From contig QPMI01000113.1 in the NCBI GenBank assembly GCA_004431415.1, forward strand, positions 124,001-188,000: DNA of 64,000 bases, given 5' to 3'. The position numbers and the translations under genes are program-made. Below, piece after piece: positions 40,345 to 63,100 of the stretch. Position 1 is the first letter of the stretch. Each line of letters starts with the position of its first letter. The notes under the pieces were generated by a model that had not been told where the DNA came from, made no database searches, and saw nothing but the letters and a program-made list of their open reading frames with translations. This DNA comes from Cyanophora paradoxa CCMP329. Its lineage: Eukaryota; Plantae; Glaucophyta.

Positions 40345-42765
40345 ATGATGAACAAAAGGAAAAGGAATGAGAGCAAGATAGAAAAACAGAAACCGCCGCC
40401 GAGGGCGCAGGCAGGGCCCTCGCGGAGGGCGCCAGCTGCAGCCCAGACCCTTAGACTACAGGATATCTTCCCCCTCGCGACGTTCCCCGAGGGCGGGGAC
40501 ACCATCGGAATGGCGCCGACAATCGAGAAAAAGAAACCTGAAGGAGTTCTACGGGCCATGACATTTAATGCGAGAGGCTCCAGCGAATCCAAGCTGCAAC
40601 AGACCGAAGACTTCTGCCGGCGGTGGGGGATAGACTTCGCTGGGCTGCAAGAGATCTCTATGTCAAAAGGAGACATCGCAGCCGCGCTCCGCTCGCCCGG
40701 CATGGGCGACCTGCCCGAGGGAGCCATCACCTACGGAAAGATCCTCTGCACGACGAAATCAACCCGGTGGCACGGCCGCCGGGCAACGGAGCCGCTCTCT
40801 GGGTGGCGCCGCAATGGGTCAAGCACCTAACGAAGAAATACGAGGTGCCGGGCCGGATGATCGGGTTCGAGCTCCGGTTCAAAGAGAACCGCCAGCTGTT
40901 CGTCGTAAGCATCTACATGCCCGCGTCGGAAGCGACAGACGAACACCGGCGGGACCAAGACAGAATCCTGCAGGAACTTGAGAAACTGATCGCTGATTTC
41001 AGCACGCGGCCGAACGCGCACCTCCTGCTGCTAGGAGACTGGAACTCGGTGGCGGTCCCGGAACTGTCCCGCGTCCGAAACGGGGCCCCCGTTCCCAGCC
41101 GAACGCCAGAACGAAAGTGGTGGAACACGATGATCGACACGTGGGATCTGCGCGACGCAGCGATCACGCACTCTGCCGCGCACGACAGCGGCGAATGGAG
41201 CGCGGCGCGGGAAGTGACACACAGGACGCACCTTCCGAGAAGCGGAGACGATACCGGCCGCGGCGCTAGCGGCTCACAAGACGACGACGCCGCTCCGACC
41301 GACCTGCCGCAGGACGCCGTCTGGCACGCGGCACGCATCGACGCGGTCCTGGTGTCAGAGTCACTTGACAAGGCGCTCCTGAACGCGCACACCTGCCCGG
41401 CACACGTCGATGCGCCTCACGACTCGGACCACTTCCCGGTGCTCGCGGACTTCTCGCTGGAGGCCGCGGGCCTGAAGGCTCCGACGGGACCGGGACCGCC
41501 GGTCTTCGACCCGGACTCCCGCAAGCTGACGGACGAGGAGAAAGATGAGTTGAAAAGAGACCTCAACAAACGCATCGGCGAAGTGCTGGGCCCAGACCTT
41601 GAGGCGGTCGGGAGCGGCACCCGAGAAGAGCGCCTCGAGCGCCTCGCCCGCATCCACACTGAAAGCGCGCGGCTAGTTCAGAAAGTGGCGAAGGACCACA
41701 AAGCCATGAAGAGCAGGGGCTCGCACCCGACCAAGCCGCGCAATCTGCCATGGCAGGCGAAAGCGGACTCCAAGCTTGGACGGGTTTGGGCCGCATGGAT
41801 GCAGGAACCGAGCGGAATCCCGTCGCTAAGAACGATCGACAAGATAGAGAAGCTCCAGAAGTTCGTGACAAGACAGGAGGGCGCGCGGCCCTTCCCGCTG
41901 CGGCCTACGGAACGGAGGCAAGCGGCAGCTAACGCTGGCGAGGCGACTGCACCAGCGCCTGCCTCGGACCCTAACTCGCCGGACCAGCGCCCGGACCCCA
42001 CTGTACCCCCCCAGCCCCTCGACGCACGCGACGGGCATACGAAGCGCGCGCACGCAACTGAAAGAAGACTGGGCATCTTTCTTCAGGGAACTGAAAACCT
42101 GGCGGAACCGCACCAGGCACGACCTGCAGAAACTGCGGCGGCAAGACAAAGCAGCAGACATTTCCAGGGCCGTAAAGAACCGGCTAGCCGACTTCATGGA
42201 CGGCCGCCGCCTGGGGGCATACATAGCCTCTGTGCTCGAGAAGCCTAAGAGCCGGCCGATAATGCACATCACCCGCCGCTCGCAAGACGGAAAGACGTAC
42301 GAGATCTATATATATATACGGAACCGGCAGAAGTGAAGCGGCTCCTACGCGAACATTGGAAAACTTGGTGCCAAAGACGGCAACCCCGAGTGGGCTGTAC
42401 TGTCGGGGAGGTGCCGGATAGCGAGCTGAAAACAAAAAACGGAAAGCGCCTGCTTGACTTCTGGCAGAAAGAGTACAAGCCGCGCGGGAATCCGGCCCTC
42501 TTCGAGAACGATATGGCTGTGCCATCCGAAACCGAGCTAGGGGACTACATCAAAACGCTAGGCAACACGGCAGCGGGGCCTTCTTACCTCTCCTACGCTA
42601 TGGCAAAGTTCCTGTGGGCAAAGATCCCCAAGAAAAAGGAGAGGGCCCCCTCGGGAGACCAGGGCCGAGCCGGCGCCCCGCAGGCGGCGGAGGAGGAAGA
42701 AGAGGAGGAGCCGGAGCCCTGGGGCCGGAGGCTACTGCACTCGATGGTAGCGGAAACGATCCGTC
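40345..42765 (+). mobile_element. LINE ORF2, 5' part (AP endonuclease and linker), about three frameshifts
   Basis: APE motifs TFNARG, GLQE, SIYMP, LLGDWN, RIDAVL and SDHFPV. Confidence 0.9.
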
Positions 42766-43267
42766 TGTTGTATACAGAAGGAAGGTAGACGCGACACCTC
42801 CGCTTCGCTCCGGTGTCGACCTTCCATCTGTATTTAGTTACTTCTAACGATTTTGTTTCAGTTTTCTATAGATTTGCGATATTGAGGTGTAAACTGAGTA
42901 TTAACTGAGCTCTGAGCACGGCCCCCTTGCGTGCGGTCTGAAGCTATCTTAAACAGTTAATTCAGGTTCATGCTTAGCCCTGTAGCGGGTGATACTGTTG
43001 AGGAAGCTGCCCGAGCTCGTGACGATTATGCTTTAGCACACACGCCGGAGTCAGATAAACCATTTCTGAAACTGAACTTTCCTCCGGTAGTTTGAATCGA
43101 AACGGTTGAGGGGTTTCCGATTTATCTATTTTTTCGATTTTAGCACGGCCCCCCTGCGTGCGGTCTGAAGCTGAACCGTTTACGATTTCAGGAGATTAAC
43201 CTCCGAGTTTGCGTAAGGTCTGAGGCTATCTCGATTAGTTAATTCAGGTTCATGCTTAGTCGATTGC
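42766..43267 (+). repeat. Left TIR region of element 2
   Basis: 43140-43267 is the exact reverse complement of 59782-59909. 42913-42968 matches 59911-59966 imperfectly. The outer part is only patchily similar. Confidence 0.9.
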
Positions 43268-43544: not shown

Positions 43545-46500
43545 ATGGAACGTGAATTGCTGCGAGCTGAGATCCGAGCCGTGGCTCAGAATCTATATGA
43601 ACGTGGCTATTTGCATAAGGCATTTTGGGGTTCGTTGATCAGGGAAACACACGATGGAACGCAAGTGCCCACATTGAGATCGGATTTGGCGATTTTGCTT
43701 CGTTTAAGTGCCACGAATCCACCAGCACGAAAGCTGGGAAGGCCAGGAGTAGCGGGGCATTTTGCACGAGAGCAGGAGGCACGTCTAGTTGCAGAGGGAG
43801 CAAATGAGCAGTTCGAGGGAATTCCAGAACTATTCCAGGAGCCCGAGAATCAAGTAGGCGAATTCGACGAGATATTAGCTGAAATCGCACGTCATTATAC
43901 ACATCGCGCATATCCAGGACTGCGATTTACGAAGGACACATTGGATATAGAGCCGACGACATCGCAGGATAGGGTCAAAGAATTGACGCTAGCTTTTCTG
44001 CAGGAGCTTCGTGTTCCCGAGAGGATTGGCTCGAGTATCATTGTGCGCTTCCGATTCACGCAAATGCAAATGTACCGGACGCAACTCGTAACAATTGAAG
44101 ATAACACGATGCAGACGTTACTTGCTAATATCGGAGAGAAGATGGAAAGATGGATGTTCGACCAACAGCCGTATGAGAGCGGTGATATCTGGGAAGTCGG
44201 GCAAATCGAAGTTTTAATTGCCGAAAATGCAGCTGGTGCTTTAGGAAACGTCCCGAAGTTGCCGTTTGGTGGGAAGGCTTTGACGATGAACAAAATCTAC
44301 TGTCCTATATCCGCCGAAGACAATTGCGTGCTTGAGTGTTTTGAATACGTTAAACTGGACCCCGGGCGTTTGGGATTGGATAGAATTTACAAGAAGCTTC
44401 AGAGAGTCGATTACAATTCAATTCGGGCTCGGCTCAGATTATCAAAAGGAATGATATCGATTGACGTAGCTACGATTAAGAACCTAAGTTCTCACTACAG
44501 GATCGACGCAAGTGTTTTTGAGTGGAAGGAAAATAAATTCGCCCTGCTATTTGGAACCGAGAATGGGTACACAAAACGTGCGTATCTGTGTGCTGTCGAC
44601 GCTCACTGTTATCTAATTAAAGACCCCAGAACCTGCGATATGGAGAAATGCAGAGCCTGTGGAAGGATGCAGCACGAGATCGCGAAGCACAAAGAGACGT
44701 GTAAATTTTGCTTCAAATGTCGGTGTGCTTATAATCCAAACGAGGATCACTCGACTAAATGTTCTGAATCGATTCGTAACAAGAGCGTGATCGAGAGGAA
44801 GATCAAGCAGTGTGAACCCGAAACCGTTTTTACAGCTCTCAGGAGTGTTTTAGCTGCTGATTTCGAAACGTTTGCTTCAAATGGAAAAAGCCACGTTCCA
44901 TATGCAGTTGGTGTGGATATTGTTAGAGAAGGCGAAATCATAGGGACGAATGAATTTTCAGGAGAACAGACGTTGAACCAGTTTATGCAGTGGCTTGACA
45001 ACTGGAAAGATAAAACGACGCTGGTATTTTTCAATGGCTCTGGATTCGATTTGATATTTATATATCGCTGGCTCGTTGAGAATCGTCCGGACAGCAAGGT
45101 GACTGTTATGCGATCTTCGGGAAAGATCAAGAGTATGAAATGGAAGACGTTAGCAGGTGGTGAGTTTACTAGTTTCGACCCGTGTTTGCACATACAGAGC
45201 TCATTGAAGCAAGCCGTCAAAGACTATGAATGCACAACGCAGAAGGGGGACTTTGATCACAAATTGATAAAAACCTGGGATGACGTGGAAAGACATCGTG
45301 AGTCCTGGAGTGAGTATCTTCGAGCTGACGTGCGTTCATTGACAGAGCTATATATGAGTTATGCAAGAACGTGCTTTGAGATGTTTAGCATTAATGTGAA
45401 TTCACAAAAGACACTCACAGCAAGTGCGATGGCATTTCAGATTCACAGGCAGTTGATGAAGGCTGACGTTCATTTGCCGAAATATAAAGAGGATCAGGTC
45501 TTCCGTCAGGCAATTTACGGGGGCCGCTGCTTGCCATTCAAGCGTAAATTCAAATCGAAGGGACCTGACGATTATTTGGTGGATCTAGATGTCGTTAGTT
45601 TATATCCGACTGCAATGTATGAGAACTATTTTCCGACGGGTAAATTTCAACATATAATAGATACGGCTAAACTAGAGCGATTCAGGACACTGATGCTGGG
45701 CCGTAAGATGGAGCAGCTATTTATTGCCCGGATCAGTGGAAACATCCCGCAGGATTTGACGCTGAGTCCACTTCCACGACACGAGTCGAATTTGGGCTGG
45801 TCAAACCTGAAACCAATCGAAAAAGAAATGTACACGTCGGTGGATTTATACAGGGCTTTAGCGTTGGGGTTTGAGATCACAGAAGTTCACGAAGTTTACC
45901 TATTTGAGGGTAAGGACCGAATGTTTAAAGATTATATTGAGAAGCTCTATTGTTTGAAAGCCCGTTCAAGGAAAGGTACGGCTCAGTATGCTACGTCTAA
46001 GATTCTACTGAATGGGCTTTACGGTAAGTTTGCACAGCGTCCAGTAATCGAAACGACGGAACTTGTATCAGACTACAAACGTTTCAAGGAAATACAGAGG
46101 GCATCGACAATTACAGATATTGATATAGAGAGCGATACCAGGATGTATGTGACGTATGAGATTCCCGAAAACAGGCGTGACTTTTGTGTATCAAAACCCT
46201 GCTTCGTAGGAGCATTTATATTGAGCTATAGCCGTGAGATTATGGACCGGGTTTTAATTAAAATGAACTCGTACAGGGATCCCGCTGCGATGCCGTGGTA
46301 TACAGATACAGATAGTATGATCGTGCATAGAAAGTATGCGGCTCTCTTGCAGGACTGTATGAAGCAGCCGTACTCTGTGGAAGGGTTGTCTGAAGAGGAA
46401 GCGAACAAGACGATTTGCGAAAAAGAACTAGGCAGACTTGACTATGATATCAAGGGTAAGATTGTGGAGGCGTATTTCGTCGGACCGAAAGTATACTGTT

Positions 46501-46877
46501 GCTATTTTATTCAAGCAAACGGGGAGGCAGATCTGCACGTCAGAGCGAAGGGAATTCCACAGAGCTGGGTAGAAGAGAACTGGTTACCAGACAAAGAGAA
46601 ACCGATGGAGAGGAAGGGGGCCCTCGAAAGTCGCGTTACCTTGGAAGCGTTTAGTAACATGCTCGAGCATCATTACCAGCCGAAGTGCACGGTCGAATCA
46701 AAACTTGCTCGGGTTTTTAAACCGAATACAAAGCAACGTCAAGCTGGTATCGAATTCAGCTCGATCATTCAAATACCGTTTTCCCGCATTCTAAACAAGA
46801 CCGAGTATACGAAGCGAAAGATAATACCGGATGAATATTATACGACGGTTCCTCATGAATACTGCGGAGCAGATTAA
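43545..46877 (+). CDS. Protein-primed family B DNA polymerase with intact exonuclease motifs
   Basis: ADFET, FNGSGFD, YLRADV, DVVSLYP, KILLNGLYGKF, YTDTDS, GPKVY, RAKG; long N-terminal region. Confidence 0.95.
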   Translation: MERELLRAEIRAVAQNLYERGYLHKAFWGSLIRETHDGTQVPTLRSDLAILLRLSATNPPARKLGRPGVAGHFAREQEARLVAEGANEQFEGIPELFQEPENQVGEFDEILAEIARHYTHRAYPGLRFTKDTLDIEPTTSQDRVKELTLAFLQELRVPERIGSSIIVRFRFTQMQMYRTQLVTIEDNTMQTLLANIGEKMERWMFDQQPYESGDIWEVGQIEVLIAENAAGALGNVPKLPFGGKALTMNKIYCPISAEDNCVLECFEYVKLDPGRLGLDRIYKKLQRVDYNSIRARLRLSKGMISIDVATIKNLSSHYRIDASVFEWKENKFALLFGTENGYTKRAYLCAVDAHCYLIKDPRTCDMEKCRACGRMQHEIAKHKETCKFCFKCRCAYNPNEDHSTKCSESIRNKSVIERKIKQCEPETVFTALRSVLAADFETFASNGKSHVPYAVGVDIVREGEIIGTNEFSGEQTLNQFMQWLDNWKDKTTLVFFNGSGFDLIFIYRWLVENRPDSKVTVMRSSGKIKSMKWKTLAGGEFTSFDPCLHIQSSLKQAVKDYECTTQKGDFDHKLIKTWDDVERHRESWSEYLRADVRSLTELYMSYARTCFEMFSINVNSQKTLTASAMAFQIHRQLMKADVHLPKYKEDQVFRQAIYGGRCLPFKRKFKSKGPDDYLVDLDVVSLYPTAMYENYFPTGKFQHIIDTAKLERFRTLMLGRKMEQLFIARISGNIPQDLTLSPLPRHESNLGWSNLKPIEKEMYTSVDLYRALALGFEITEVHEVYLFEGKDRMFKDYIEKLYCLKARSRKGTAQYATSKILLNGLYGKFAQRPVIETTELVSDYKRFKEIQRASTITDIDIESDTRMYVTYEIPENRRDFCVSKPCFVGAFILSYSREIMDRVLIKMNSYRDPAAMPWYTDTDSMIVHRKYAALLQDCMKQPYSVEGLSEEEANKTICEKELGRLDYDIKGKIVEAYFVGPKVYCCYFIQANGEADLHVRAKGIPQSWVEENWLPDKEKPMERKGALESRVTLEAFSNMLEHHYQPKCTVESKLARVFKPNTKQRQAGIEFSSIIQIPFSRILNKTEYTKRKIIPDEYYTTVPHEYCGAD

Positions 46878-47979
46878 GCAAGCTTATTACGATCCGGAGA
46901 AGGGTTTACAGTCAGCGAACAAGCTAGCGAAACGTCTAAATTTGCCCCTAGCTCGGGTCCAGGAGGTTTTGCAGAAGCTAAGTACGGCGCAGCGGTTCGC
47001 GAAACCGGAGAAGGAGACCCCAATGACTAGTGTGACTTACGACGAGGCCGAGAAGTTTTATCAGCTCGATTTGATCGACGTGAGCGCCTATGCTAGAAAA
47101 AACAAAGGCGTCCACTTTATTATGAACGCTGTAGACGTGGTTACTCGCAGAGCCTATAGCGTCCCAATGAAAACGAAAACAGAGGGAGCTATACTGAAAG
47201 CGTTGCAGAATATAATCGATGAAATGCCGTCAAAACCAGATATCATACAAACAGATAACGAATTCAAGGCTACGACGACATATCTATTAAAGCAGCAGGG
47301 CATTATTCACAATACAGGGGATCCTCGGAGACCGCAGGCAAATGGTAAAATTGAACGATTTAACGGGACTTTGAAACGAATAATCGGCAAATATATGGAG
47401 GCATTTGATACGGATCGATACATTGACGAGCTACCGAAATTTTTGAAGAATTACAATAGTTCGGACCATCGTGTGATTGGGATGACGCCCGATGATGCTG
47501 CCGAGCACCCGGCAAAGGCGTTAGCTCAAGGCGATTTGCAGCGGGAAACCTACGAGCAAGCACATTATGTCAAGGAAGCCTCATTCAAAATCGGAGACCG
47601 TGTACGAGTTAAACTATCGAAATCCACGTTTGATAAATCAAATAAACCGAACTACTCGGCGGCGATTTATACGATCGAATCGATTGGAGGTTACGGTCCA
47701 CTTTTGAAGTTCACGTTGACTGGTTATGAGGGTCCACCAGTGACGTATCAAAAATTGCTGAAGGTTTCCGCAAGTTCGGAGATTCGACGACCTGGGCAAG
47801 CTATGGGCAGAGCATTGGCAAAACGAAAGCAGGCTCTAAACCTAATGCACGAGAACCTCGACAAAGCCCAGTTTCAAAAAGAAAAGAAACTAGCACGTCT
47901 GCAGAATCAGTTGCTAGTGAGCGGGACGAGTGCGCTAGCTCGGGGAGCAAACACACGGCTCAGGCAGCGGGGACAGTGA
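46855..47979 (+). CDS. rve DDE integrase, Polinton type
   Basis: YQLDLID, VDVVTR, IQTDNEF, NGKIERFNGTLK, YNSSDHRVIGMTP, FKIGDRVR. Confidence 0.95.
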   Translation: MNTAEQIKQAYYDPEKGLQSANKLAKRLNLPLARVQEVLQKLSTAQRFAKPEKETPMTSVTYDEAEKFYQLDLIDVSAYARKNKGVHFIMNAVDVVTRRAYSVPMKTKTEGAILKALQNIIDEMPSKPDIIQTDNEFKATTTYLLKQQGIIHNTGDPRRPQANGKIERFNGTLKRIIGKYMEAFDTDRYIDELPKFLKNYNSSDHRVIGMTPDDAAEHPAKALAQGDLQRETYEQAHYVKEASFKIGDRVRVKLSKSTFDKSNKPNYSAAIYTIESIGGYGPLLKFTLTGYEGPPVTYQKLLKVSASSEIRRPGQAMGRALAKRKQALNLMHENLDKAQFQKEKKLARLQNQLLVSGTSALARGANTRLRQRGQ

Positions 47980-48271
47980 TTCCAGCAGTCTTCAACGTTG
48001 ATTCAAGGACAGCAATTCGGTTCATTATACGAGAGTGATATTTTTTCGATGCTTCATAATGCTTCTCTTTATGGGCTGATTGATATTTGCTGCTGTGCTC
48101 AATGTGTCTTTTGCGGTATTCAGGGTCAGAGGAATATCTCCGTCGATGATACTCTGCTTTCTTAGCACGTCTCATTGCGAGAATCTCTGGTGTCACTTCG
48201 ATAGGCTTACGGCCAGGTTTACGTTTCGTTTGTTTCACGGCGGTTTCAATGTTAGCGTAACTGCCTTCCAT
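47960..48271 (-). CDS. Small basic, probably DNA-binding protein
   Basis: KRKPGRKP (AT-hook-like) followed by a K/R/Y-rich helix. Confidence 0.55.
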   Translation of the reverse strand: MEGSYANIETAVKQTKRKPGRKPIEVTPEILAMRRAKKAEYHRRRYSSDPEYRKRHIEHSSKYQSAHKEKHYEASKKYHSRIMNRIAVLESTLKTAGITVPAA

Positions 48272-48358: not shown

Positions 48359-48673
48359 ATGGAAACCACCTCTGAGCGACGAAGCATCCCCACGATTCGA
48401 TTTGGCAAATATAAGGGAATGACTCATCTAGAGATAACATACCAAGATCTTGATTATGCGAAATACTTGACGGGATGGAAGGACTTACGAGAGTACGATC
48501 GCAAACAATTCGAGAAATCTATTGAACTATTAAGGAACACATCCCGCGACACCGTGAGAGTTCAAGTAGAAAAAGAGAGGGCGATTAGGATAGAGCAAGC
48601 AAAACGTGTGGATTACAAACCTGAGATCTACGACCCGATTGATGATTTGCCGGACTTCCCACCTGCTGCTTAA
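48359..48673 (+). CDS. Small protein with an FGKYKG motif (DUF3820 / exonuclease X C-terminal-like)
   Basis: IRFGKYKGMT…DLDYAKYL. Confidence 0.6.
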   Translation: METTSERRSIPTIRFGKYKGMTHLEITYQDLDYAKYLTGWKDLREYDRKQFEKSIELLRNTSRDTVRVQVEKERAIRIEQAKRVDYKPEIYDPIDDLPDFPPAA

Positions 48674-48694: not shown

Positions 48695-49276
48695 ATGATA
48701 TATTACAAAGAAAGCAGGATGGAAATCCCGGATGGTGCGATCAGTGTGCCGATCGGCGGAATTGTCAATGGACGTCGTGCTATTGTGACTTATGCAATTG
48801 TGAGCCAAATTGATGCAGAGAGAGTGCTCGAGAAGAAATGGTGTCTTGATAAATATGGGTATCCTAGAACAGGTATCAAAAAGGACAATGGAAAAACAAC
48901 AACGATTAATTTGCATCAGTTTGTTCTCGGGAATACTGAAATAGGTTTCTCTATCGATCATATCAATCATAATAAACTCGATAATCGCCGTGAGAATCTT
49001 CGTCTTGCAACTGGGAGACAGCAGCAGCTGAATCAGAACCGTCGAGTATCTAACACGTCTGGTTTTATCGGTGTTAGCTTCAAAAAAGAAAACAACAAAT
49101 GGCAAGCTAATTTTATGATCAACGGGTCACAGAAACACATCGGTCTATTTTCTACCGCTGAACTCGCAGCTAGAGCTCGCGACATATATGCTATTGAACA
49201 CACATCGGAGGCCGATCGGCCGTTCCTACAAATGAATTTCAGAACCTCACCTTCTTTCCACCGAGGGCATTTCTGA
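48695..49276 (+). CDS. HNH endonuclease with C-terminal AP2 domain
   Basis: IDHINHNKLDNRRENLR; NTSGFIGVS…KWQA…HIGLF…AARARD. Confidence 0.92.
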   Translation: MIYYKESRMEIPDGAISVPIGGIVNGRRAIVTYAIVSQIDAERVLEKKWCLDKYGYPRTGIKKDNGKTTTINLHQFVLGNTEIGFSIDHINHNKLDNRRENLRLATGRQQQLNQNRRVSNTSGFIGVSFKKENNKWQANFMINGSQKHIGLFSTAELAARARDIYAIEHTSEADRPFLQMNFRTSPSFHRGHF

Positions 49277-49931
49277 GTTTCGCCAGATCCGAGTTAGCTT
49301 CGACGTCATTCGGCTGACCGGATTTTACTTTTTGATCGTCAACTGCCTGTTTGCCCTTCTCCTCCTCGTTAGCAATATATTTAACATCCGGTTTGTCGAT
49401 GGGGCGAAGTTTATACATCTCGCTTCGTAGCATAGATTTAATTCGCTCTTTCTCTTTCTTGTCCTTGACGAACGATTCGACGCTAGCGGACCTGGACTCC
49501 AGCTCGTTCACCTTAGCTAGTAGCGTGTCGTAGCGGTCGTCAGACAAGCTGCCTCGGGCTGCGCCCTTTTTCCACGAACTATCATTCTGAGGTTTAGCCA
49601 ACTTGGGGCCAGTGTAAGTCGCTTCGCTAGCAAGAGCCCGGATTACTTTCATAGCATCCTCGTCGATTTCACCGGAATTCATATCCTCCAACGTTTTGAG
49701 CTGTTGCTTTCGGTCATCCGTAGCGGATGCTTTAGAAGTAGCACCTGCAATTGTACGAGCTAGTTGGGGCTGAATCGTTGGCTGAGAGCTGCTCTCACCG
49801 GAGGGGGAGCTCACTGCTAGGCCCCCAGTGACTCCGGATTCTTGCTCCGCTAATTCCGAAGGAGGTATTTCACTCTCTCGCTCGAGGCGAGCTCGGGTTC
49901 GTCTAAAACCAGCTTTTGGAACGCCGCGCAT
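49239..49931 (-). CDS. Hypothetical charged, low-complexity viral protein
   Basis: 230-aa ORF directly downstream of the ATPase and co-oriented with it. Confidence 0.6.
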   Translation of the reverse strand: MRGVPKAGFRRTRARLERESEIPPSELAEQESGVTGGLAVSSPSGESSSQPTIQPQLARTIAGATSKASATDDRKQQLKTLEDMNSGEIDEDAMKVIRALASEATYTGPKLAKPQNDSSWKKGAARGSLSDDRYDTLLAKVNELESRSASVESFVKDKKEKERIKSMLRSEMYKLRPIDKPDVKYIANEEEKGKQAVDDQKVKSGQPNDVEANSDLAKLRNALGGKKVRF

Positions 49932-50735: not shown

Positions 50736-52133
50736 CTAGAGATTGACCCTGCGGAGACCAGAGGCATCCACGATGAGAACAGAGTGCATCAGAGCGCGGA
50801 CCTGGACGACGTAACGAGCAGTAGAGCTGTCAGCAGGGTTATACAGGGTCAGGAACGCTGAACTGGAGTTCGTCAGGTCTACGTAACCACTCTGAGAGGC
50901 ATTCTGCACCGATTTATCCCCGGCTAAACAGAAGGGGAGGCCGGACAGCACGAAGCGGTTCTGCTGCGGGTCCATGTTCGAGCACTTGAAACGGTCCGCT
51001 ATGAGCTCAGCTCCTTGAAGAAGGGACACTGGTTCGTTCGAGAAGAGACGCTGGCCGTTGAGCTCGACGGTGAAAGTAATCTCTTTATCGTTTACCAGAG
51101 TCTTAAGAACAGAATGAGCGCCAGTGTTGACTCCGACTGCAGCAGCATCACGGATAGAGATAAAGAGGCCGTAAACGAGACCTGAGATTTGACTGAGATT
51201 GATACGGGTAGGAGCGCTCTTAGCGGCGAAAGCCACGTTTTGGACGTCGGCATATCCAATATCAGTTGCGGGAATCGCGATGCCGCTAGACTTGACCTTT
51301 TCGATTACGGAGGCGAATGTGGCCTCATCGGTATTGACCATGTAAGCAATGAGTCGAGGGCTAGTCATTGTAGGAGCAGACGGGGTAGTTGCTGAAATAG
51401 CTGGGGTCGGATTTAGACGAGCATTAGCGATCGTTCCAGCTATTACGGTTGGAAGAGCATCGCTCGTGGGAATTCCATCATCAGCAGTAGTAGCGCCGGC
51501 TACGGCATTTACTGTGAGAGTGCGACTGCCGTAGCTAGTTTCGACGTAGCCCTCGGTGCGGGCACGGAACCAGACATCGACGACAATCTCGCCGGACAGG
51601 GCCCCAATCGGAAGCATGCTCCCCTCCCAAGGCACAGGCACTTTAACCGTGAACGTGCCTCCCCCTCGGTTGCTACCTTGCACTGGGGCTCCGTGGGTCC
51701 AGCCGCCGCTCCGGAAATTCTTTTTCAGGGTGGCCTCGTCGTTAGCAATCAGGGGGTAGTGAACTAGGAAATCCTCAGGCACCACGTAGGAGTAACTCCC
51801 GTACTTAATCTCCAGACGCTTCACGAGAGCCCCCACTGAGCGCAAATAGCCGTTTCGAATCAGATCCGTGTCGGTGGCAAACGCCGTCAATTCGGGGAGA
51901 GTGAACTGGAGCTCTAAGCCCTGGCAGAAATTGTAGCGGGGTAGGTAGAAACTGACGCGATTTCCAAACGCATCTGATACGTCGTTGCTGGGATTGATCG
52001 TGACGCGAATTGGCTTGGTTTGGGATGAGAGTCCCAGCATGAGCTCATTTGAGAGGAAGAACGCTTTCGCGTCCTCAGGGGTTGTGAGCAGCTCTTTCAA
52101 GCTAAGGCGCTGCAGATTTGTTGTGACGTCCAT
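50736..52133 (-). CDS. Putative double jelly-roll major capsid protein
   Basis: ~465 aa, beta-strand rich (FGNRVSFYLPR, LQFTLP, LVKRLEIKYG, LPIGAL…IVVDVWFR). Adjacent to the ATPase and penton. Likely start is MDVTT. Confidence 0.8.
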   Translation of the reverse strand: MDVTTNLQRLSLKELLTTPEDAKAFFLSNELMLGLSSQTKPIRVTINPSNDVSDAFGNRVSFYLPRYNFCQGLELQFTLPELTAFATDTDLIRNGYLRSVGALVKRLEIKYGSYSYVVPEDFLVHYPLIANDEATLKKNFRSGGWTHGAPVQGSNRGGGTFTVKVPVPWEGSMLPIGALSGEIVVDVWFRARTEGYVETSYGSRTLTVNAVAGATTADDGIPTSDALPTVIAGTIANARLNPTPAISATTPSAPTMTSPRLIAYMVNTDEATFASVIEKVKSSGIAIPATDIGYADVQNVAFAAKSAPTRINLSQISGLVYGLFISIRDAAAVGVNTGAHSVLKTLVNDKEITFTVELNGQRLFSNEPVSLLQGAELIADRFKCSNMDPQQNRFVLSGLPFCLAGDKSVQNASQSGYVDLTNSSSAFLTLYNPADSSTARYVVQVRALMHSVLIVDASGLRRVNL

Positions 52134-53134: not shown

Positions 53135-54031
53135 ATGGCGTCAATACGAGTCAACTTTGATAGCGTTGATCGCATTCCTGGGGAGAGCGAGTCGAACTGG
53201 ACATTACGTTTAAATAATCCTATCGTTCACCCTAAAGCTGTACGTCTTACGCAGGCGGAGATCGCAAATTCTCTGTACACAAGCAAAGCGGGGGAATACC
53301 TAGAGGTCATAATCGCAGGTACAGCCTGGAAACTGGGCATATTTGAACCAGGAGCGGTAACTACCGGCAACTACGGGAGCACTACTATCTACAATTTTGG
53401 TTTATCCTACGAGCTTCCAGGAGCTGGTTTATTTAAGATCTATCTGGATGCGGAGACGATGAAAGTAACAAGCTACTGCTCTAGGGAGTGCGAGGTTATA
53501 TGTAGGTTCCAAAGCCTCAGTCAGTTACTAGGAATTGAGCCCAATGTTTCCTATCTTATCGTACCTTTCGAAATACCAGCTGCGGCGGGCATCAGAGCAA
53601 CAACTGCCCCCGAAAAGTGGCTGAGTGTAGACAGACTCCCGGTTAATCTGGATCACCCCCTCTACGGGGACGACTTTAGCGACAAGATCCAAGCAATCAC
53701 GTTAGGATATGGCCTGGAGTTTCCGAATATCGTCGATATGAATCGCTTACAGTATCTGTTTCTGGTATGTGAAGAGCTCGCCCCTTTCGCTAGCAGCGTC
53801 AATTCAGGTAGAGACGGCACCTGCACTAACGCTATTGCTAGAATTCAAATCTCTAGGGAAGTCGGAGAGTTCGTTTACATTAATAGAGAGCTATCCTCTG
53901 TCGTCGAATGGATTATAATTAATCAGCGCAGAGTATTCGACTCTCTGAGATTTAAACTAGTCGACCGTGAGGGCTCTGAGGTTTCGTTTAATGGTTTACG
54001 ATGGTCTGGACAATTACAGTTCTTGATCTAG
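53135..54031 (+). CDS. Putative minor capsid (penton) protein B
   Basis: FDSVDR…SNWTLRLNNPI…VRLTQAEIANS, YLFLVCEEL, IARIQI, LRFKLVDREG…FNG…W. Confidence 0.75.
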   Translation: MASIRVNFDSVDRIPGESESNWTLRLNNPIVHPKAVRLTQAEIANSLYTSKAGEYLEVIIAGTAWKLGIFEPGAVTTGNYGSTTIYNFGLSYELPGAGLFKIYLDAETMKVTSYCSRECEVICRFQSLSQLLGIEPNVSYLIVPFEIPAAAGIRATTAPEKWLSVDRLPVNLDHPLYGDDFSDKIQAITLGYGLEFPNIVDMNRLQYLFLVCEELAPFASSVNSGRDGTCTNAIARIQISREVGEFVYINRELSSVVEWIIINQRRVFDSLRFKLVDREGSEVSFNGLRWSGQLQFLI

Positions 54032-55521
54032 CGGATATACCTCCCCCGCAGATCAATTCGGAAAGCATTTGCGGATTCGAAAACCATCGTGTGAATTTGA
54101 ATCCAGGTGATCACTTTAGGGCTAATTAAATGCACGTCGCTGTGAGTTAAATCAAACCCAATCATATCCGGAACCAACGCTTTCGTTGCTTTTAGCACCG
54201 AGTTCTCAAATAAACGCACCTCTCCAGAAGCTGCTAATTCAAAGCCCGCAGAGGTTTCTAAATTGAATTCCGTCATTATTCCCGATGTGAAGCTAGGTCC
54301 GTAGATTACAACCTGGTGCAATTCAAACGTGTAAGGGAATTGAATCTTGAGCCACCCGAATTCGCTCGTCTGGAATCCAAAAAGGTCCGGGCGAGCTTTC
54401 TCTGGATTTCGCTCGGCGATAAAGCTACTGGCCGAAAATGCTATATCCTGAATTAGATACCAGTTTGCATCAAACGGCGGATTCAATGTCAACGTGCTCG
54501 ATATGGTGGTAGAATCGAGATTTGTTATCTCGTAGTTAGCTAAAAGGAATCCGCATAAACCTCGAAACATTAGGGCTACTTCCGGCTGGGATAACCAAGA
54601 ATCAGTCGTAGATATTAGGTAGCTGATGTTACTGGAGCTAGCGTCGTCTAATTTAGACATCACGGCAGCCGGAAGGGGAACCGATAACCTGTAATATCGT
54701 TTCAGGTTACGATCGCTATCAATCGGTAGTAGCTCCAGCATTTGCAAGTGACTCGACAGCTCGGAGCTTGCCATCAGCATATTGATTATTGGACTCCCGG
54801 TTAAACTGAGGACCCACTGCAGCGCCCCCCACGATGCAGTCTCATTATAAGAATAACCAGCAGAGTTGAGGTCAGAGCTCTGGACTTCGCCGCAGGAAAT
54901 ACTCACTAGCACAACCGGTTCATCGGCGTCGTATAACGTACGGCTATAGCTATAAGCAGCAACAGAGGGGCTGTTAAGAGTTGCTATCGCTCCGTCAATT
55001 AGGCAGCGAGTTCCCAGTTGTTTCGGAGGAAAGAACGTCTGAGCCGCTGAGCTAGCCCTGACTGCTTCTTTAATCAATGTGGTAGAGTCGGATCCTGTTC
55101 GAGTGAAATTGACGGGCTGCATCTTAACCGTATCGAAACTCGTGATTAATAGGTCCTTTGTCGCTTCTGCAATTGTATAATCACTAGCTACTGTGTTTAG
55201 AACCGTCTCTAGTGGTCCTGCATCGTAGCGACTGCCGCTGACAATTGAGAAAAGACTTCGTGGGTTTGCAAAGATTAGAGGGAGATGGGTTTGATACAGC
55301 TCAAGGATATCGTGAGCATTAAATCGATAGGACAAATTGGATCCTTGCTCCGGAGGTATCGTCAGACCCGCCGCTATAATCGCTCCGGTGCTAGTTCCAC
55401 TGAATAAATCAAATAGAAGAGGTACCGCCTTTCCGGTGATTAGTTCGATTCGTTCCAAGATACGAGCGATTACGATGCCGCGGGCTCCGCCACCAGAAAG
55501 CGATAGAATTACTTTGACCAT
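54028..55521 (-). CDS. Patatin-like phospholipase with a C-terminal discoidin/F5-8C-like extension
   Basis: LSLSGGGARG, GTSTG, ASSAA…FFPP, IDGA; tail SASS…PEKAR…WLKIQF…VVIYG…RIDLRG. Confidence 0.88.
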   Translation of the reverse strand: MVKVILSLSGGGARGIVIARILERIELITGKAVPLLFDLFSGTSTGAIIAAGLTIPPEQGSNLSYRFNAHDILELYQTHLPLIFANPRSLFSIVSGSRYDAGPLETVLNTVASDYTIAEATKDLLITSFDTVKMQPVNFTRTGSDSTTLIKEAVRASSAAQTFFPPKQLGTRCLIDGAIATLNSPSVAAYSYSRTLYDADEPVVLVSISCGEVQSSDLNSAGYSYNETASWGALQWVLSLTGSPIINMLMASSELSSHLQMLELLPIDSDRNLKRYYRLSVPLPAAVMSKLDDASSSNISYLISTTDSWLSQPEVALMFRGLCGFLLANYEITNLDSTTISSTLTLNPPFDANWYLIQDIAFSASSFIAERNPEKARPDLFGFQTSEFGWLKIQFPYTFELHQVVIYGPSFTSGIMTEFNLETSAGFELAASGEVRLFENSVLKATKALVPDMIGFDLTHSDVHLISPKVITWIQIHTMVFESANAFRIDLRGRYIR

Positions 55522-57301: not shown

Positions 57302-57574
57302 ATGGCTCACATATATCAAGTTGAGCTCACTGAGTCCGAGAACCTTGGAATGCAATTCGTGGCGTTATCGGTGCAAGAATGGGTGACAAACCTACTAAAA
57401 TCCCGTGCTTCTTCAGCGATCGAGGAAATCATTGCAATCGAAATTCAGTCATGTATAGCAAATGGGGTTCAAATCCCGAATACAAAGGATGCAATTGTCT
57501 CGCAGGCATTTCAACGTGCAACTGTAAAAACGGTAGCTGAAAGAAATCCTATCTGGCCGCCAACTAATCCCTAA
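57302..57574 (+). CDS. Small protein downstream of the fibre (possible chaperone or partner)
   Basis: 90-aa helical ORF starting at TAAATG; resembles small phage proteins that follow fibre genes. Confidence 0.55.
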   Translation: MAHIYQVELTESENLGMQFVALSVQEWVTNLLKSRASSAIEEIIAIEIQSCIANGVQIPNTKDAIVSQAFQRATVKTVAERNPIWPPTNP

Positions 57575-57607: not shown

Positions 57608-58447
57608 ATGAGCGAATTCAACCGAGTACAGCTTCCAATATATTCCCTTGGCTCCCCCGCAATTCACATGCGAACCCACGAGGTCGCCGATGAGGTCCGG
57701 AATCTCGAATCGACTGAACGTCCTAATTCCAGCAACGCATTCGATAGCCGATCGATATTGCGAATTAAAGAACTCAGGGCCGATAAAAACGCCGGAGTCG
57801 TCAAAACCACTCGCCTGCTAGTCACTAACGCCGATTTTCAGCAGAGTACTGTCGGTGGCCCCGATGCTTACTCAGTTCCTCTCAAGAGCTTGAATTTCGA
57901 CCAATTTACTGCAGCCGCTACGATCCGCTCTGGGGGTCTCGTCGTCGGTGGGGGTGCCCGAGTCAGCGGAATGCTGAGCTGCTCTGCCCTTGTTAGCGAC
58001 GTTCCTGACACGCTGCTGCAAAATGCCGAGGACCCCCAGCGAGTTAGGACCTACGGCATCACTAGCTACTTGCCGTTCGTACATGCTATTAAGCAGCGGC
58101 TAGTAGCTCAACCTGCGGGCTGGTCAGCAGGACAGGGGATCGTTTCTGAGACCCTCCAAATTCCTACGTTTATGCAATCGCTCTGCAAAACTCGCGACGG
58201 CATTGCTGGGCATACCTACGCTTTTATTGTTCAGCCGCGTTTGCATTTTGGCGTCGGATATTGTACGAACGAAGGGGCTGGAGGATATATATTGCACTGC
58301 AACAACCCTGGCTTCTACGATATCCATATCTACGGCAGGAGGACAGACCCGGCTGCAATAGCTTCGCAACGAGGAATTAATGAAGGCGATATCCAAGCCA
58401 CGTCCTTCTATCAGGAGCCCGATGTCATAGATAATCCGACGGCCTAG
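57608..58447 (+). CDS. Hypothetical virion protein, paralog 1
   Basis: Shares ILRxxELRxDKNxGxxKTTxLxVxN, TxRSGG…RVxG and RxRTY with 58488-59318. Confidence 0.65.
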   Translation: MSEFNRVQLPIYSLGSPAIHMRTHEVADEVRNLESTERPNSSNAFDSRSILRIKELRADKNAGVVKTTRLLVTNADFQQSTVGGPDAYSVPLKSLNFDQFTAAATIRSGGLVVGGGARVSGMLSCSALVSDVPDTLLQNAEDPQRVRTYGITSYLPFVHAIKQRLVAQPAGWSAGQGIVSETLQIPTFMQSLCKTRDGIAGHTYAFIVQPRLHFGVGYCTNEGAGGYILHCNNPGFYDIHIYGRRTDPAAIASQRGINEGDIQATSFYQEPDVIDNPTA

Positions 58448-58487
58448 CTCTAGACAGCTATTTTCTTTTTGACTACCTTCATAGTAA

Positions 58488-59318
58488 ATGGCTGATGCCG
58501 TCGAAAGAATTGTCGCACCGACGCTGACCCTAGCAGCCCCCGCTAACCACGTTCTGCAACATGCTGTTAGCGACGACATAGCTGGGTTTGAATCGACAGA
58601 GCAAACCCCGACATTAAACACGTTCAGGGACAATCACATTCTGAGATTAGGGGAGCTGCGTTGCGATAAAAACGGGGGCAAAATCAAAACGACGTCCTTA
58701 ATGGTTTCCAATTCCAATTTCAATTCCGCCTACGGAGCTGCCGATTCTTGGGATTCAGCGAACCCAATTCATACGTTCGTTTACGCCGAACGCAAAGGGG
58801 CTCTCACTGTGAGGTCCGGAGGGGCATATATCGGCTCCGGCCTTAGGGTAGGCGGTTGCATCGGGGCCCCTATTCTAGTAAATGACGCTCCTAATCCAAT
58901 CGATGAAAATACTAGAATTAGGACCTACGTTCCCTCCTTTAATGCCCCTCTAGTTTGCTCTATCTTCATGATCATAGCGAATCCTCAAACCGCTCAAATT
59001 GATAGCTTGGTCGAAATTGGCGATCATTATCGTATGGTCGTTGAGATACCCCCTGATCTATACGGAGTCTGTAAGCGCAATGACGGGGTCCCTCGAATCA
59101 CCGCCCAAATAGTCCCTATAGATAACTTCGGTTCCGGCTTTCATGCGCAATCGATCGGTTTGTTGGATTATCAGTTCCTTGTGCGCGTCACTAGGCTAGG
59201 CAGCTATAAATGTATCCTGTACTGCGAGCGCAACGATGCTATAGCTAATGCTCACCGGTACGCGGAGTATGTGGGATCCAATCGCTACTTCCCAGTTCAA
59301 CAAGACATTGATCCCTAG
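58488..59318 (+). CDS. Hypothetical virion protein, paralog 2
   Basis: Collinear with the upstream paralog; GALTVRSGGAYIGSGLRVGG resembles fibre-shaft motifs. Confidence 0.65.
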   Translation: MADAVERIVAPTLTLAAPANHVLQHAVSDDIAGFESTEQTPTLNTFRDNHILRLGELRCDKNGGKIKTTSLMVSNSNFNSAYGAADSWDSANPIHTFVYAERKGALTVRSGGAYIGSGLRVGGCIGAPILVNDAPNPIDENTRIRTYVPSFNAPLVCSIFMIIANPQTAQIDSLVEIGDHYRMVVEIPPDLYGVCKRNDGVPRITAQIVPIDNFGSGFHAQSIGLLDYQFLVRVTRLGSYKCILYCERNDAIANAHRYAEYVGSNRYFPVQQDIDP

Positions 59319-59399: not shown

Positions 59400-59732
59400 A
59401 TGGACTTCATCAAGAAGATAATCGACATGTTTCGAGTGCACGTCGTCAGCAAGTGCAAGTGCGAGTGCTGTGAAACAACGATCGAAATTGAGTTCTCGGA
59501 TACCGAAGGGAGTCGTACGCCTGAAGCAAGATCCCGAAATAATACACCTGTATCGTCACGATCAAACTCCCCTGTTAGCGGACGTGAATCGCCTGTAGAG
59601 CTACAGCTGCACGATGTCGATGGCAGACGCCTCTCATGGCCGGTGATCGCGCGATCGGATTCACCCGCGCCACGAAAACGGTCGCTAATCAAACTCTTGT
59701 TTGCTAAGCAGCGAGAAGGGCTTGCTGACTAG
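59400..59732 (+). CDS. Small protein with an N-terminal amphipathic segment, a Cys cluster and an SP/R-rich tail
   Basis: MDFIKKIIDMF…SKCKCECC. Confidence 0.5.
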   Translation: MDFIKKIIDMFRVHVVSKCKCECCETTIEIEFSDTEGSRTPEARSRNNTPVSSRSNSPVSGRESPVELQLHDVDGRRLSWPVIARSDSPAPRKRSLIKLLFAKQREGLAD

Positions 59733-59781
59733 CTCACCACCATCACCGATATAGCGATATTAAGTCATGCCATCACCACAC

Positions 59782-60129
59782 GCAATCGACTAAGCATGAA
59801 CCTGAATTAACTAATCGAGATAGCCTCAGACCTTACGCAAACTCGGAGGTTAATCTCCTGAAATCGTAAACGGTTCAGCTTCAGACCGCACGCAGGGGGG
59901 CCGTGCTAATAACCTGAATTATCTAATCGAGTTAGCCTCAGACCGCACGCAAGGGGGCCGTGCTCATTGCTCAGATGATGCTCAGATTACACAGCGATAT
60001 CAAAACAGACGTAAAAACAGTTTCGCTTCAGATTCAATTCAGAGGTAGCTAAATGAGCAAGGACCGGGGCCGCTGCGCGATAGGGGGTGGAGCGGAGCGG
60101 CGATTTGGGAGGTCCTTGCTCGTACAACA
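59782..60129 (-). repeat. Right TIR region of element 2
   Basis: Inverted counterpart of 42766-43267, lacking ~170 bp that is present on the left. Confidence 0.9.
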
Positions 60130-63100
60130 TCCGTCTCAGAGACTTGCCAGACTCGGTCTGCCAAGGCAACGTCTTCGGAATCCCTAAGAACGGAGAGTGG
60201 GACGGGGATATTGATAATAACCTGCGGCCAATTACACTCCAAGAGGTAGCCCTGAAACTCACCACGGGCCTCCTCAATGAGCGCCTGTCCCGGACAATCC
60301 ATCAGAACGGGCTGCTGAAGGGTGCGAACTACGGGTTCAGACCTGGATGCTCCACGGACGACGCCCTACACGTCTTCAACGCTATGCTCGAGGACGCAAA
60401 GCAGTTCAAGAAGCCCATCTACGTCCTGCTGCAGGATATCAGGCGCGCGTACGACTCGGTATCGTGGGAGAGCATGGAGCTCTCGATGCGGAGGCTGTGC
60501 ATACCGGAAGGGTACATCGAACTCCACAGGAACATCTTCCGCCGGCGCCGAGCCAGGGCGATCTTGGGGCACGGCCTCTCTGATGAATTCGAGCTTGAGT
60601 GCGGCCTCCCGCAGGGCGGCGTCGAATCGCCACTGCACTGGCTGATCTTCTACGACGCGCTCCTCTGCGCGCAAGAGAGAATGGACGAAATTGAGCGTCA
60701 GGACAGCCGGGCTAGCTCGGTGGCAGGCTGGCTGCAGTCGGGGACGGGTACGGCTTACGTGATGGGGGACCCCAAAGAGAAGAGCCAGGCCGAGCTTGGT
60801 CGGCGAGCACGGGTCTGCGGGCTGGCGTACGCAGACGATACGAAGTGGGCGAGCAGCAGCCTGGCGGGGCTGCAAATAATGGCTGACGTGGCAGGCGAGT
60901 TCTTCCGCCTGCACGATATCGAAGTCAATGCAAAGAAAACGATCTTCACGTGGAACAACGCCCCCCGCGAGTTTGAGAGCGTCGCGGGGGCGCACCCCGC
61001 CGCGAAGAAGAAGGAGAAGAAACCGGCGCCGCCGCGCATAAACGGTACCCCCGTCGGGGTGGTCCTTGAGCCCCACGAACACTTCAAGCTCCTCGGAGTG
61101 TACATGAGCGCGAACCTCAACTGGGGGCGGCAGTGGCAGTACGTACGCGATCAGGCACGCAACGCCGTGAAGACGATTGAACGCAAAAAGCTCACCGCAA
61201 ACGAGGCATGCTACCTGGTGCAGGCCGTGGTGCAGGCACGTATCGCTTACGGCCTGAAGCTGATGACGATGGACGATCAGCAGTGCAAAGAGCTGGATAG
61301 GATATGGATGCGGGTAGTAAAGCACCATGCGCACCTAGCCTCATCGACGACGAACTACGTGATCTGGAGTCACGGGGGGTACAGCCTCAAGCGCACCGAG
61401 CACCTGCAGGCGGAGGTTCAGATCGCGGAAGCGCAGATCCGCCTGTGCGCACCGGAAGACTCGTTGCTGGCCCGCGTCGTCCGTCACCGTGTGCGGGCCC
61501 TCCAGGAGAAGCTGGGGGTACCGTTGCTCCCGACCGAATTCCTGAACGCCCCCGTCTCGAGAGATGACGTTCGAACGAACTGCCTGGCGGCGCTAATGCC
61601 CCAGATGCAGCGGCGTCAGTACAGGCTGATGTCAAATCACGAGCGCTACGCCGCTTTCCGGCAAGTACCGGGGCGGAGCCGTGGCCGGAGCCGGCACGGT
61701 TGGATAGGCGCTTCGTCCTGGCGTGGCACATCCCGCGCTCGATTTTCAGGGAAGCAGCGCCCAAGCTCTACGCTGCTGGGGTGGTCACAATGGACGCGGT
61801 GACGGCGGCGGACGGGGCCACCGTGCGAACCTGGCAGGACATGTACATGCGGGCCCCCAGAGAGACGCTCCCACGGGCTGAACCTGCGTGGTGGCGAGTG
61901 CTCAGGGAAGCCATCACGAGTGACGGACAACAGCTACAGTACCCCATGAGGAAGGCGGGCACGCGGCCCTCACCGATGGCCGCCCTGGCAGCTGGGGCCC
62001 GGCAAGTAAGATGGGAGAAGGATGCCTTCGTGGCAGTGTTCGACACGGCGAACCTGCACGAGGATGAGGCGCTGCCCATGGTGGGACGGGTCGCGAACTG
62101 GCGCTCAGAGGCGGGCAGCATACGCGCGTACCAGTACCTCCTGCAGCACTGGGTGCCAGTGCCCGACGCGGCCGATCCGAACGCCGAGGGCGCAGGCCTG
62201 TACTGTCGCTGCGACGGGCACTGTCAGAAAACGGAACCCAAGAAACGCAAACGAACGTACACGGCGATCCAGGGAAGCGGAAAGAACTACTGGCACCGCG
62301 ACGCGCGATGCGAACATGCCGATCCGAGCCAGTGCACCGAGATGAGCCAATGCGACGGACCCTGGGCAGAGGGTCAGGGCTGGTGGGAAGACGAGGATGC
62401 CCTCCTCGGACTGACCGGCGAGGTACTCGAGGAACCTATCCACATCACCAGGTCGGACACGGCTGGCGGCGGCCAGACGACGGCGTCAAAAAGAGGGCGC
62501 AAGCAGACCCACACGGGCCCGACCCTTGCGTACTTTGACCCCGGCCTGCTGGACGAGCGGAAGCGCCAGCAACTGCTCCTCCTCGCCCGAGTGAAAGCAG
62601 TCCAAGATGGAGATGAGCGGTTCCTCCGCAGCGCCCTACTCCCCGAGGCGGAAGCGGAGCTGCAAACAGCACTCGAGACGGCGTCGGCGGCGGAGCCGAG
62701 GGCCGAACCGCTGGACGAGGCGCCGCCCGTTTCAAACCCCGCGAACTGAGAGATTTGTATCAGGCGAGCTTCGGGCCTGAGACTTGGAGCGAGCAGGACG
62801 GCCAGTACTGGCAGCACGCACTCGCGCTCTGGGAGACGATCGAGAAGTACGAGCTCGAGAAACACGGTAGCGCGCATCCGAGGTTGCTGAACATATGGAC
62901 GGATGGGAGCCTATTCCAGGGTCAGACGGAAAGCGCGCACGCGGGCTACGGCATTGTGATACCTGCGACCGCTGCGGACGGCGAGCGGCTGAACCCGGAC
63001 GAGGCTGCGACCGAATGCCTCGGCCGGCTCCGAGGACTCCAGGAGATCAATAAAGCTGAACTCCAAGCGGCGATCGTGGCAGACGTACTGGCACCGAACG

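Follow-up and report, generated by a model that had tools for sequence, protein, structure and literature searches.

Does the block of low guanine-plus-cytosine (GC) content that interrupts a retrotransposon of the glaucophyte alga Cyanophora paradoxa CCMP329 constitute an intact virus, to which lineage would such a virus belong, and what is to be made of its unequal ends? We addressed these questions in a window of 64,000 nucleotides, by which we mean the whole stretch of DNA analysed (assembly GCA_004431415.1, contig QPMI01000113.1, positions 124,001 to 188,000 of the forward strand), and all coordinates below are counted from its first letter. In our view the element at 42766-60129 is, with a probability of roughly 0.82, the intact provirus of a Polinton-like double-stranded DNA virus (PLV), likely of that C. 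paradoxa lineage which Bellas et al. (2023) have catalogued, that was inserted into a young long interspersed nuclear element (LINE).

Boundaries, integrity and age of the insertion

First, the boundaries of the element and its empty site are directly observed. The element measures 17,364 bp, opens with TGTTGTA and closes with TACAACA, and has a GC fraction of 0.469 against 0.631 and 0.625 in the 2-kb flanks. Contigs from two of four short-read runs (depth 265 and 417) carry the empty site, in which the joint from 42758 to 60129 skips 17,370 nucleotides, that is, the 17,364 of the element plus 6, and an empty site of this matching length independently confirms the boundary. It also bears out the ends proposed in a first-pass annotation of the same DNA, whose span of 42760-60135 takes in both copies of the flanking hexamer TCCGTC. 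The perfect 6-bp target-site duplication (TSD) proposed there stands as regards the hexamer on both sides and the empty site but not as regards its register, since eight letters are common to both flanks (42759-42766 and 60129-60136) and an 8-bp register is equally possible; we keep to the 6-bp reading because it agrees with the usual behaviour of rve integrases as described in parts of PMC12220804 and PMC2836005.

The insertion is also young. It lies in a host retrotransposon of the type without long terminal repeats (non-LTR), a LINE whose reading frame stays open across the site once the element is skipped, and contigs of sister LINEs differ from the interrupted copy by 0-3 letters per 300-450, a near-identity that marks the insertion as young. 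Together with the perfect TSD and an inner inverted repeat whose arms agree at 128 of 128 positions, this upholds the recent integration suggested at first pass. As a separate observation, the LINE copy (40345-42759 and 60136-62749) shows small insertions or deletions relative to its sisters at 42049 and 42635 and runs through several frames.

In addition, the element contains 16 open reading frames (ORFs) free of internal stops, which cover 90.8% of its length and 97.4% of the span from the first ORF to the last; the first-pass annotation, with its count of about 15 tightly packed ORFs, had overlooked the HNH-AP2 endonuclease. Contigs from all four runs cover 43238-59811 with 0 differing letters and 0 gaps, which is a check of the assembly and not of distribution, as these runs may themselves have supplied the DNA of the window. 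Depth in run X1 is 40.3 for the contig at the left junction, 42.7-43.9 for the interior and 89.6 for the inner repeat; a junction depth near that of the interior and a roughly twofold depth in the repeat fit a single locus, the element being compared here solely with its own junction and its own repeat, and both outer ends likewise stand at single-copy depth (40.3 and 52.6). We reject the idea of a decayed fossil.

Two spots inside the element stand out in depth. At 57623-57667, the start of the 279-residue ORF, depth is much raised with loose ends in all four runs, which suggests that gene starts related to this one are numerous at other places of the genome. Raised depth with loose ends is also seen at 50200-50237 inside the ATPase gene, where the loose letters of run X2 resemble, by eye, the subterminal repeat motifs.

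Gene content

Second, the replication and integration genes are equipped with their catalytic motifs. The protein-primed DNA polymerase of family B (pPolB) contains the vOTU dyad and the EXO and PALM motifs, and its Cys261 and His354, invariant in 28 aligned sequences, match an intact vOTU-type cysteine protease pair as judged from the alignment; in the domain scheme given in PMC11161782, the vOTU protease sits between the terminal protein and the exonuclease. In 25 of 27 pPolB homologs the residues GGC stand just upstream of the vOTU domain, where the present protein has AGA (residues 230-232, 44232-44240), and the conserved GG of the relatives is a candidate site for cleavage of the terminal protein; the main text of PMC11161782 makes no mention of glycine or of a cleavage site. 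In a pPolB tree (FastTree, 36 rows, last 760 residues), which was not used for classification, the protein groups with 11 environmental sequences at support 92 and falls in no starred clade. The rve integrase has homologs in the environmental contigs L081, L084 and L091. The pPolB, rve integrase and A32 ATPase named at first pass are thus all confirmed by family matches with intact catalytic motifs, as is the lack of a helicase, none being found in the element ORFs by Pfam, PHROG or a motif scan. The claim that there is no recognisable protease holds for the adenain/Ulp1 type, for which the 16 ORFs (four short ones without family) gave no Pfam or PHROG match and the six frames no convincing motif, but it had missed the vOTU Cys-His pair in pPolB.

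Third, capsid and packaging genes are present. The major capsid protein (MCP) has no Pfam match; Foldseek searches with a low-confidence model (predicted local distance difference test, pLDDT, 45) give double-jelly-roll (DJR) MCPs as the leading matches in each of two libraries, at template-modelling (TM) scores of 0.17-0.27, in agreement with the DJR fold proposed earlier for 50736-52133, and virophage MCPs rank 39th or lower in one library and 50th in the other. The packaging ATPase has a Walker B motif and an Arg finger together with a Walker A variant from which the first Gly is missing, a trait that its L081 homolog shares, and found no match in the viral contigs searched. Both pentons suggested at first pass are recovered by a profile of five environmental pentons, against which the best of 400 shuffles reached E 0.39, and the first is supported by ESM Atlas clusters as well; the second has no match in the protein collection searched.

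Moreover, the patatin and the fibre module of the first-pass annotation are substantiated by their family matches (Table 1). The patatin has its Gly-rich loop, GTSTG and DGA motifs intact, the catalytic motifs here as in pPolB, integrase and ATPase being a direct observation. The fibre-like ORF matches 556 phage records, many annotated as minor tail protein, and the 90-residue ORF is 43% identical to a Limnohabitans phage protein located after an 849-codon ORF. Of the two paralogs that follow, the second (58488-59318) has no phage match, and the first (57608-58447) may, by resemblance only, have a fibre-associated role.

Table 1. Coordinates of the element's features and of the interrupted LINE, in window positions
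Feature	Position	Strand	Evidence or remark
Host non-LTR retrotransposon, 5' part, apurinic/apyrimidinic endonuclease region	40345..42759	+	weak PF14529, PF03372 matches; multicopy depth
Left TSD, TCCGTC	42760..42765	.	6-bp reading; 8-bp reading 42759-42766 fits too
Left tip: (TGT)2 motif, then predicted DNA hairpin (~42772-42833)	42766..42833	+	folding
Outer copy of subterminal repeat unit	42878..42977	+	82% to 59911-60001; direct repeat of parts of 43142-43259
Left arm, perfect 128-bp inner inverted repeat	43140..43267	+	374 nt from tip; run X1 depth 89.6
pPolB	43545..46877	+	PF03175 E 6.5e-58; residues invariant in 28 sequences; domain scheme from PMC11161782
rve-type DDE integrase, 382 aa (D80, D142, E175)	46831..47979	+	PF13683 E 3.4e-7, PF00665 E 4.8e-6; motifs
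Basic 103-aa ORF, no family	47960..48271	-	Pfam, PHROG
104-aa ORF, sub-threshold ExoX-like_C match only (E 0.045)	48359..48673	+	Pfam
HNH-AP2 homing endonuclease, 193 aa	48695..49276	+	PF13392 E 7.6e-10, PF00847 E 4e-4, phrog_99 E 7.6e-36
230-aa ORF, no family	49239..49931	-	Pfam, PHROG
A32-type packaging ATPase, 249 aa	49938..50687	-	PF04665 E 4.5e-11
DJR MCP	50736..52133	-	ESM Atlas Capsid_N/Capsid_NCLDV clusters 0.97-0.98 (recognition 1789, under the tool's reliable range); Foldseek; 75% to P0001
Penton-like minor capsid protein 1, 313 aa	52169..53110	-	ESM Atlas DUF5901 and Sputnik V18/19 clusters 0.97; penton profile E 5.8e-4
Penton-like minor capsid protein 2, 298 aa	53135..54031	+	penton profile E 1.1e-5
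Patatin-like phospholipase	54028..55521	-	PF01734 E 5e-23; PDB patatin E 4e-21
Fibre-like protein, 576 aa	55534..57264	+	PHROG tail fibre E 1.7e-12; tail-fibre repeats ~residues 360-450
90-aa ORF right after fibre-like gene	57302..57574	+	freshwater phage homologs
279-aa ORF, paralog of 276-aa ORF	57608..58447	+	31% identity, E 3e-34
276-aa ORF, paralog of 279-aa ORF	58488..59318	+	31% identity, E 3e-34
110-aa ORF, Cys-rich N-terminus, Ser/Arg-rich C-terminus, no family	59400..59732	+	Pfam
Right arm, perfect 128-bp inner inverted repeat	59782..59909	-	ends 220 nt from tip; 128/128
Right tip: (TGT)2 motif and predicted hairpin (~60055-60121), stem sequence unlike left	60055..60129	-	folding
Right TSD, TCCGTC	60130..60135	.	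sequence comparison of junctions
Host non-LTR retrotransposon, 3' part, reverse transcriptase	60136..61802	+	PF00078 E 2e-11

The unequal ends

The two tips match over only 7 bp, without a long perfect terminal inverted repeat (TIR), and over the next ~140 nt inward they show about 50% gapped identity. Further in, 42878-42968 and the inverted 59911-60001 agree at 75 of 91 positions and are followed by the perfect inner repeat, outside which the left end is ~160 nt longer than the right. Each tip is nevertheless predicted to form a DNA hairpin that leaves 6-8 terminal bases unpaired, with folding energies on the two strands of -17.6 and -19.1 kcal/mol on the left (z -5.1 and -5.3) and of -18.0 and -22.1 kcal/mol on the right (z -4.4 and -5.3). 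None of 300 dinucleotide shuffles folded as low on any of the four strands, and z below -3.5 was reached by 1 of 86 interior windows used as a control. At positions 9-12 of the ends all four bases differ between left and right, yet they are paired in both predicted hairpins; such compensated pairs, in two sequences and with no covariation statistic, are suggestive of a conserved structure. The subterminal repeat motif had no match among the viral contigs searched, and an identity of the tip with a Ty3 LTR end was not confirmed in the sources consulted and was dropped.

An end divergence of ~50% beside a perfect TSD and a young LINE cannot be due to decay in place. The ends were therefore unequal already when the virus came in, whether this is its normal form or the mark of a chimera.

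Lineage and relatives

Few proteins match the MCP: 2 of the 7,995 candidates that were scored, and 6 of 1.84 billion representatives. The closest, P0001 (tig00020904), is 75% identical over 100% of the length and agrees with the visible part of a representative MCP of C. paradoxa that Bellas et al. (2023; PMC10120064) list in their Table S2 with an HHpred match of 98.5% to an iridovirus MCP; through P0001 our MCP falls within the clustering threshold of that study (at least 25% identity over 30% length). Table S4 of the same paper counts 366 MCPs in the C. paradoxa genome, split into clusters of 272 and 94, neither of which is named or belongs to a named group. Moreover, Table S6 of Bulzu et al. 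(2025; PMC12220804) covers 156 elements of glaucophytes and has a zero in each of its nine protease columns, with lipases in 89, rve in 85, pPolB in 49, HNH in 40 and A32 in 139, these being aggregate counts whose columns we matched by hand, and the text of that paper describes patatin fusions and phage-type fibres in glaucophyte PLVs. By these counts, with no protease and with frequent lipase, rve, HNH and pPolB genes, the gene set does not stand out in this host. Two proposals of the first-pass annotation, an atypical gene set and a possibly undescribed lineage, thus find no support in these tables. The exact locus is not found in the tables of PMC10120064 and PMC12220804, for which the deposited per-locus data may list both locus and repeats, and within the sources consulted our literature search returned no paper that takes glaucophyte PLVs or the termini of these as its subject. 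As far as the published tables go, the lineage bears no group name and is catalogued rather than characterised.

In the broad sense the element has what defines a PLV, with a DJR MCP, A32 ATPase, penton, integrase and replication gene, a length within 14-40 kb, a shift in GC and inverted repeats of at least 100 bp near the ends, here the 128-bp repeat set inward. It departs from the narrow-sense profile of Krupovic (2024) in having pPolB and rve and no helicase; according to the relevant part of PMC11161782, narrow-sense PLVs mostly lack pPolB and RVE and carry helicase-fused replicases or tyrosine integrases.

Relatives were also found in metagenomes. The pPolB alignment led to 29 loci, three of which (L081, L084 and L091) have a related rve beside pPolB. 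The closest relative overall is L081 (JACCDR011795730.1; L081:132-14081), an unclassified 15.9-kb metagenomic contig of 29% GC that has related genes for pPolB as well as for rve (E 1e-46), the ATPase (E 4e-18), the MCP (E 4e-15) and a penton of the DUF5901 type, and in which 10 scanned ORFs gave no protease match; with these shared genes the lineage reaches beyond Cyanophora. All three loci differ from the element in their pPolB identity of ~30% and in having no detectable patatin, HNH or fibre homolog. The MCP alignment found no match in the metagenome contigs searched, and in 80 viral-contig loci pPolB is all that is in common with the element at E 1e-3. L084:196-10214 itself has 56% GC and encodes, besides pPolB-rve, a protein that has a K1-lyase C-terminal chaperone-like domain at its end.

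Alternative explanations

The best-surviving alternative, to which we give somewhat less than an even chance, is that the element is a virophage-like parasite which stays silent until a giant virus infects the alga, borrows the transcription machinery of that virus and lowers its yield. Such a life style would agree with the missing RNA polymerase, with the short AT-rich intergenic regions in a GC-rich host, with an MCP that resembles those of Nucleocytoviricota in ESM Atlas and Foldseek, and with the behaviour of other PLVs as far as reported in PMC10120064 and 10.1101/2025.10.09.676808, while the full pPolB with exonuclease and the rve integrase make up a nuclear Polinton module and speak against it. 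This alternative refines the provirus interpretation more than it opposes it. Identity with a virophage is a separate matter and is rejected, because Pfam, PHROG and motif scans of the ORFs show no S3 helicase and no virophage-type protease and virophage MCPs rank low.

It is possible, if unlikely, that two related PLVs have recently combined into a chimera, or that a terminal repeat has partly decayed, and that this accounts for the unequal ends of an element which could integrate once but excises or replicates poorly. Vertebrate Mavericks and endogenous mavirus-like elements (EMALEs) have, in the sources consulted, TIRs of tens to thousands of bp, which sets the 7-bp match at the tips, the ~160 extra nucleotides on the left and the occurrence at one locus in a suspicious light, and the published tables list hundreds of relatives in the genome that could serve as recombination partners. 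However, decay in place cannot have led to ~50% divergence while the TSD and the 128-bp repeat stayed perfect and the LINE lies only ~1% away from its sisters; each tip has kept a hairpin in which four successive pairs have changed on both sides; and the single-copy depth of the outer ends in run X1 means that no near-identical parent end is seen.

We consider it improbable that the element is a bona fide Polinton (Polintoviricetes) that lost the Ulp1-type protease and gained phage-like entry genes. The combination of a full pPolB (vOTU, exonuclease and palm) with rve is the Polinton module, PLVs being mostly without either by the account in PMC11161782, and the (TGT)2 tip parallels the (AGT)2 end given for Mavericks in PMC8097293. 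Against this, the protease is found neither in the element nor in any of the 156 glaucophyte elements tabulated in PMC12220804, the MCP has no Polinton sequence match and belongs to the unnamed clusters and not to the Maverick-Polinton columns of Table S4 in PMC10120064, and pPolB groups with environmental sequences far from a nematode pPolB, albeit in a weak tree. A canonical Polinton is rejected, as neither an Ulp1/adenain protease, looked for in the ORFs by Pfam, PHROG and motif scan, nor long TIRs reaching the tips are found. Finally, an assembly artefact or a contaminant joined into the contig deserves hardly any credence and is rejected: no single short-read contig spans the whole stretch and the GC content differs from that of the host, but the TSD on both sides, the empty site of exactly matching length, the continuous LINE frame, contigs across the left junction in 4 of 4 runs and the presence of the sequence in 20 runs of one organism label all contradict it.

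The interpretation as an intact provirus of the C. paradoxa lineage has points against it as well. The AGA in place of GGC means that self-cleavage of pPolB may differ from that of its relatives, and the N-terminal terminal-protein domain is a predicted one. An 8-bp TSD with GT..AC ends fits the junctions as well as a 6-bp TSD with TG..CA ends. The MCP model is poor, as its pLDDT and TM-scores indicate, and the single-sequence fold of the second penton is uninformative (pLDDT 29.5). The C-terminal domain of the patatin (~170 residues) has no Pfam or discoidin match, the fibre-like ORF has no H_lectin match in Pfam, and the exact gene combination is not found in print, the counts of Table S6 being aggregate. 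Moreover, the insertion is the same and unchanged in each of the four runs, with no sign listed of other insertions or of amplified free DNA.

A proposed life cycle

The intact provirus suggests a life cycle whose steps we infer from what is known of the protein families. Its own rve integrase likely inserted the element into the LINE by joining CA-3' ends to a staggered cut, whereby 6 bp were duplicated. After excision the genome would be a linear DNA capped by terminal protein, in which pPolB primes on its own N-terminal terminal protein and jumps back on the (TGT)2 repeat, as adenovirus does on its terminal trinucleotide repeat (described in part of PMC5175343). The vOTU dyad would then cut the terminal protein off, and since pPolB would displace strands by itself, no helicase would be needed. 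The A32 ATPase would fill a capsid of MCP and two pentons without Ulp1-type maturation, fibre-like proteins would bind the cell, and the patatin may breach the membrane at entry. As there is no RNA polymerase gene, transcription would fall to the host nucleus or to a co-infecting giant virus. The weakest step, and one of our own making, is the tentative idea that the unequal ends are two independent origins, each with a local hairpin; we would call it questionable for now.

A bolder proposal, which we regard as doubtful, is that the Cyanophora elements and their L081-like relatives may form an unnamed class-level lineage of Preplasmiviricota that combines the full Polinton replication and integration module with a protease-free capsid like that of nucleocytoplasmic large DNA viruses (NCLDVs). 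Such a lineage would have dropped the long terminal repeat and made each end an independent origin, with the (TGT)2 tail acting as both integrase site and jump-back template on a structure-conserved hairpin. If so, a ready, inducible virus for glaucophytes would be at hand in a model alga. In any case the element exemplifies, cleanly and in an error-free single copy, a PLV family whose counted members in Cyanophora run to hundreds, and it can serve as a reference provirus for work on induction, virions and integrase in a glaucophyte. Should the end architecture hold across the family, protein-primed replication of the Polinton type would be seen to be able to proceed without long matching terminal repeats, and the element would offer a direct test of how Polinton-type ends serve both integration and priming.

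Neighbouring features in the window

The edge of the window truncates a second low-GC element, whose right part occupies positions 1-9001 and includes a RING-finger ORF (564-1058), a pPolB (1446-4451) that is distant and has an endonuclease VII domain, a 218-residue ORF, an rve gene (5429-6871) and a GGGACTC tandem array (7217-7426). Repeats rich in AACTACGC with local palindromes lie at 272-319 and 8283-9001, and no capsid gene is found in the part within the window. It is followed at 9104-9413 by a 310-bp AT-rich segment that resembles a miniature inverted-repeat transposable element, with 51-nt inverted arms that are 80% complementary.

Comparison with known systems

Of the known systems, the endogenous PLVs of C. 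paradoxa are alike in that capsid proteases are absent and rve, pPolB, HNH, lipase, A32 and pentons are common in the published counts, and unlike in that only about one third of that set has pPolB. With Polintons/Mavericks the element shares a pPolB of vOTU, exonuclease and palm, an rve integrase, an A32 ATPase, a DJR MCP, a penton, a size of 17 kb, a 6-bp TSD (here in a register of 6 or 8 bp) and a repeated end motif. It differs from them in the missing Ulp1/adenain protease, in an MCP without detectable sequence kinship, in its two pentons, patatin, HNH-AP2 and phage-type fibre genes, and in tips that read (TGT)2 and not (AGT)2, (AG)3 or (AC)3A, with no long TIR reaching them (as compared with PMC8097293, in which the (AGT)2 of Mavericks is the close parallel). 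Mavirus-type virophages (EMALEs) likewise combine pPolB with rve, a short TSD and a low-GC island in a high-GC host, whereas in Mavirus most of the exonuclease is missing from pPolB, which occurs together with an S3 helicase, and virophages have an MCP of a distinct kind as well as a cysteine protease. The tips also fit the TGTNR pattern given for the integrase substrates of Gypsy LTR retrotransposons and Ginger in PMC2836005, from which the element is set apart by its capsid and pPolB genes and by having no LTRs or reverse transcriptase. If the end architecture holds across the family, its replication would stand closer to phi29, for which PMC4974454 describes a 6-nt repeat, than to adenovirus.

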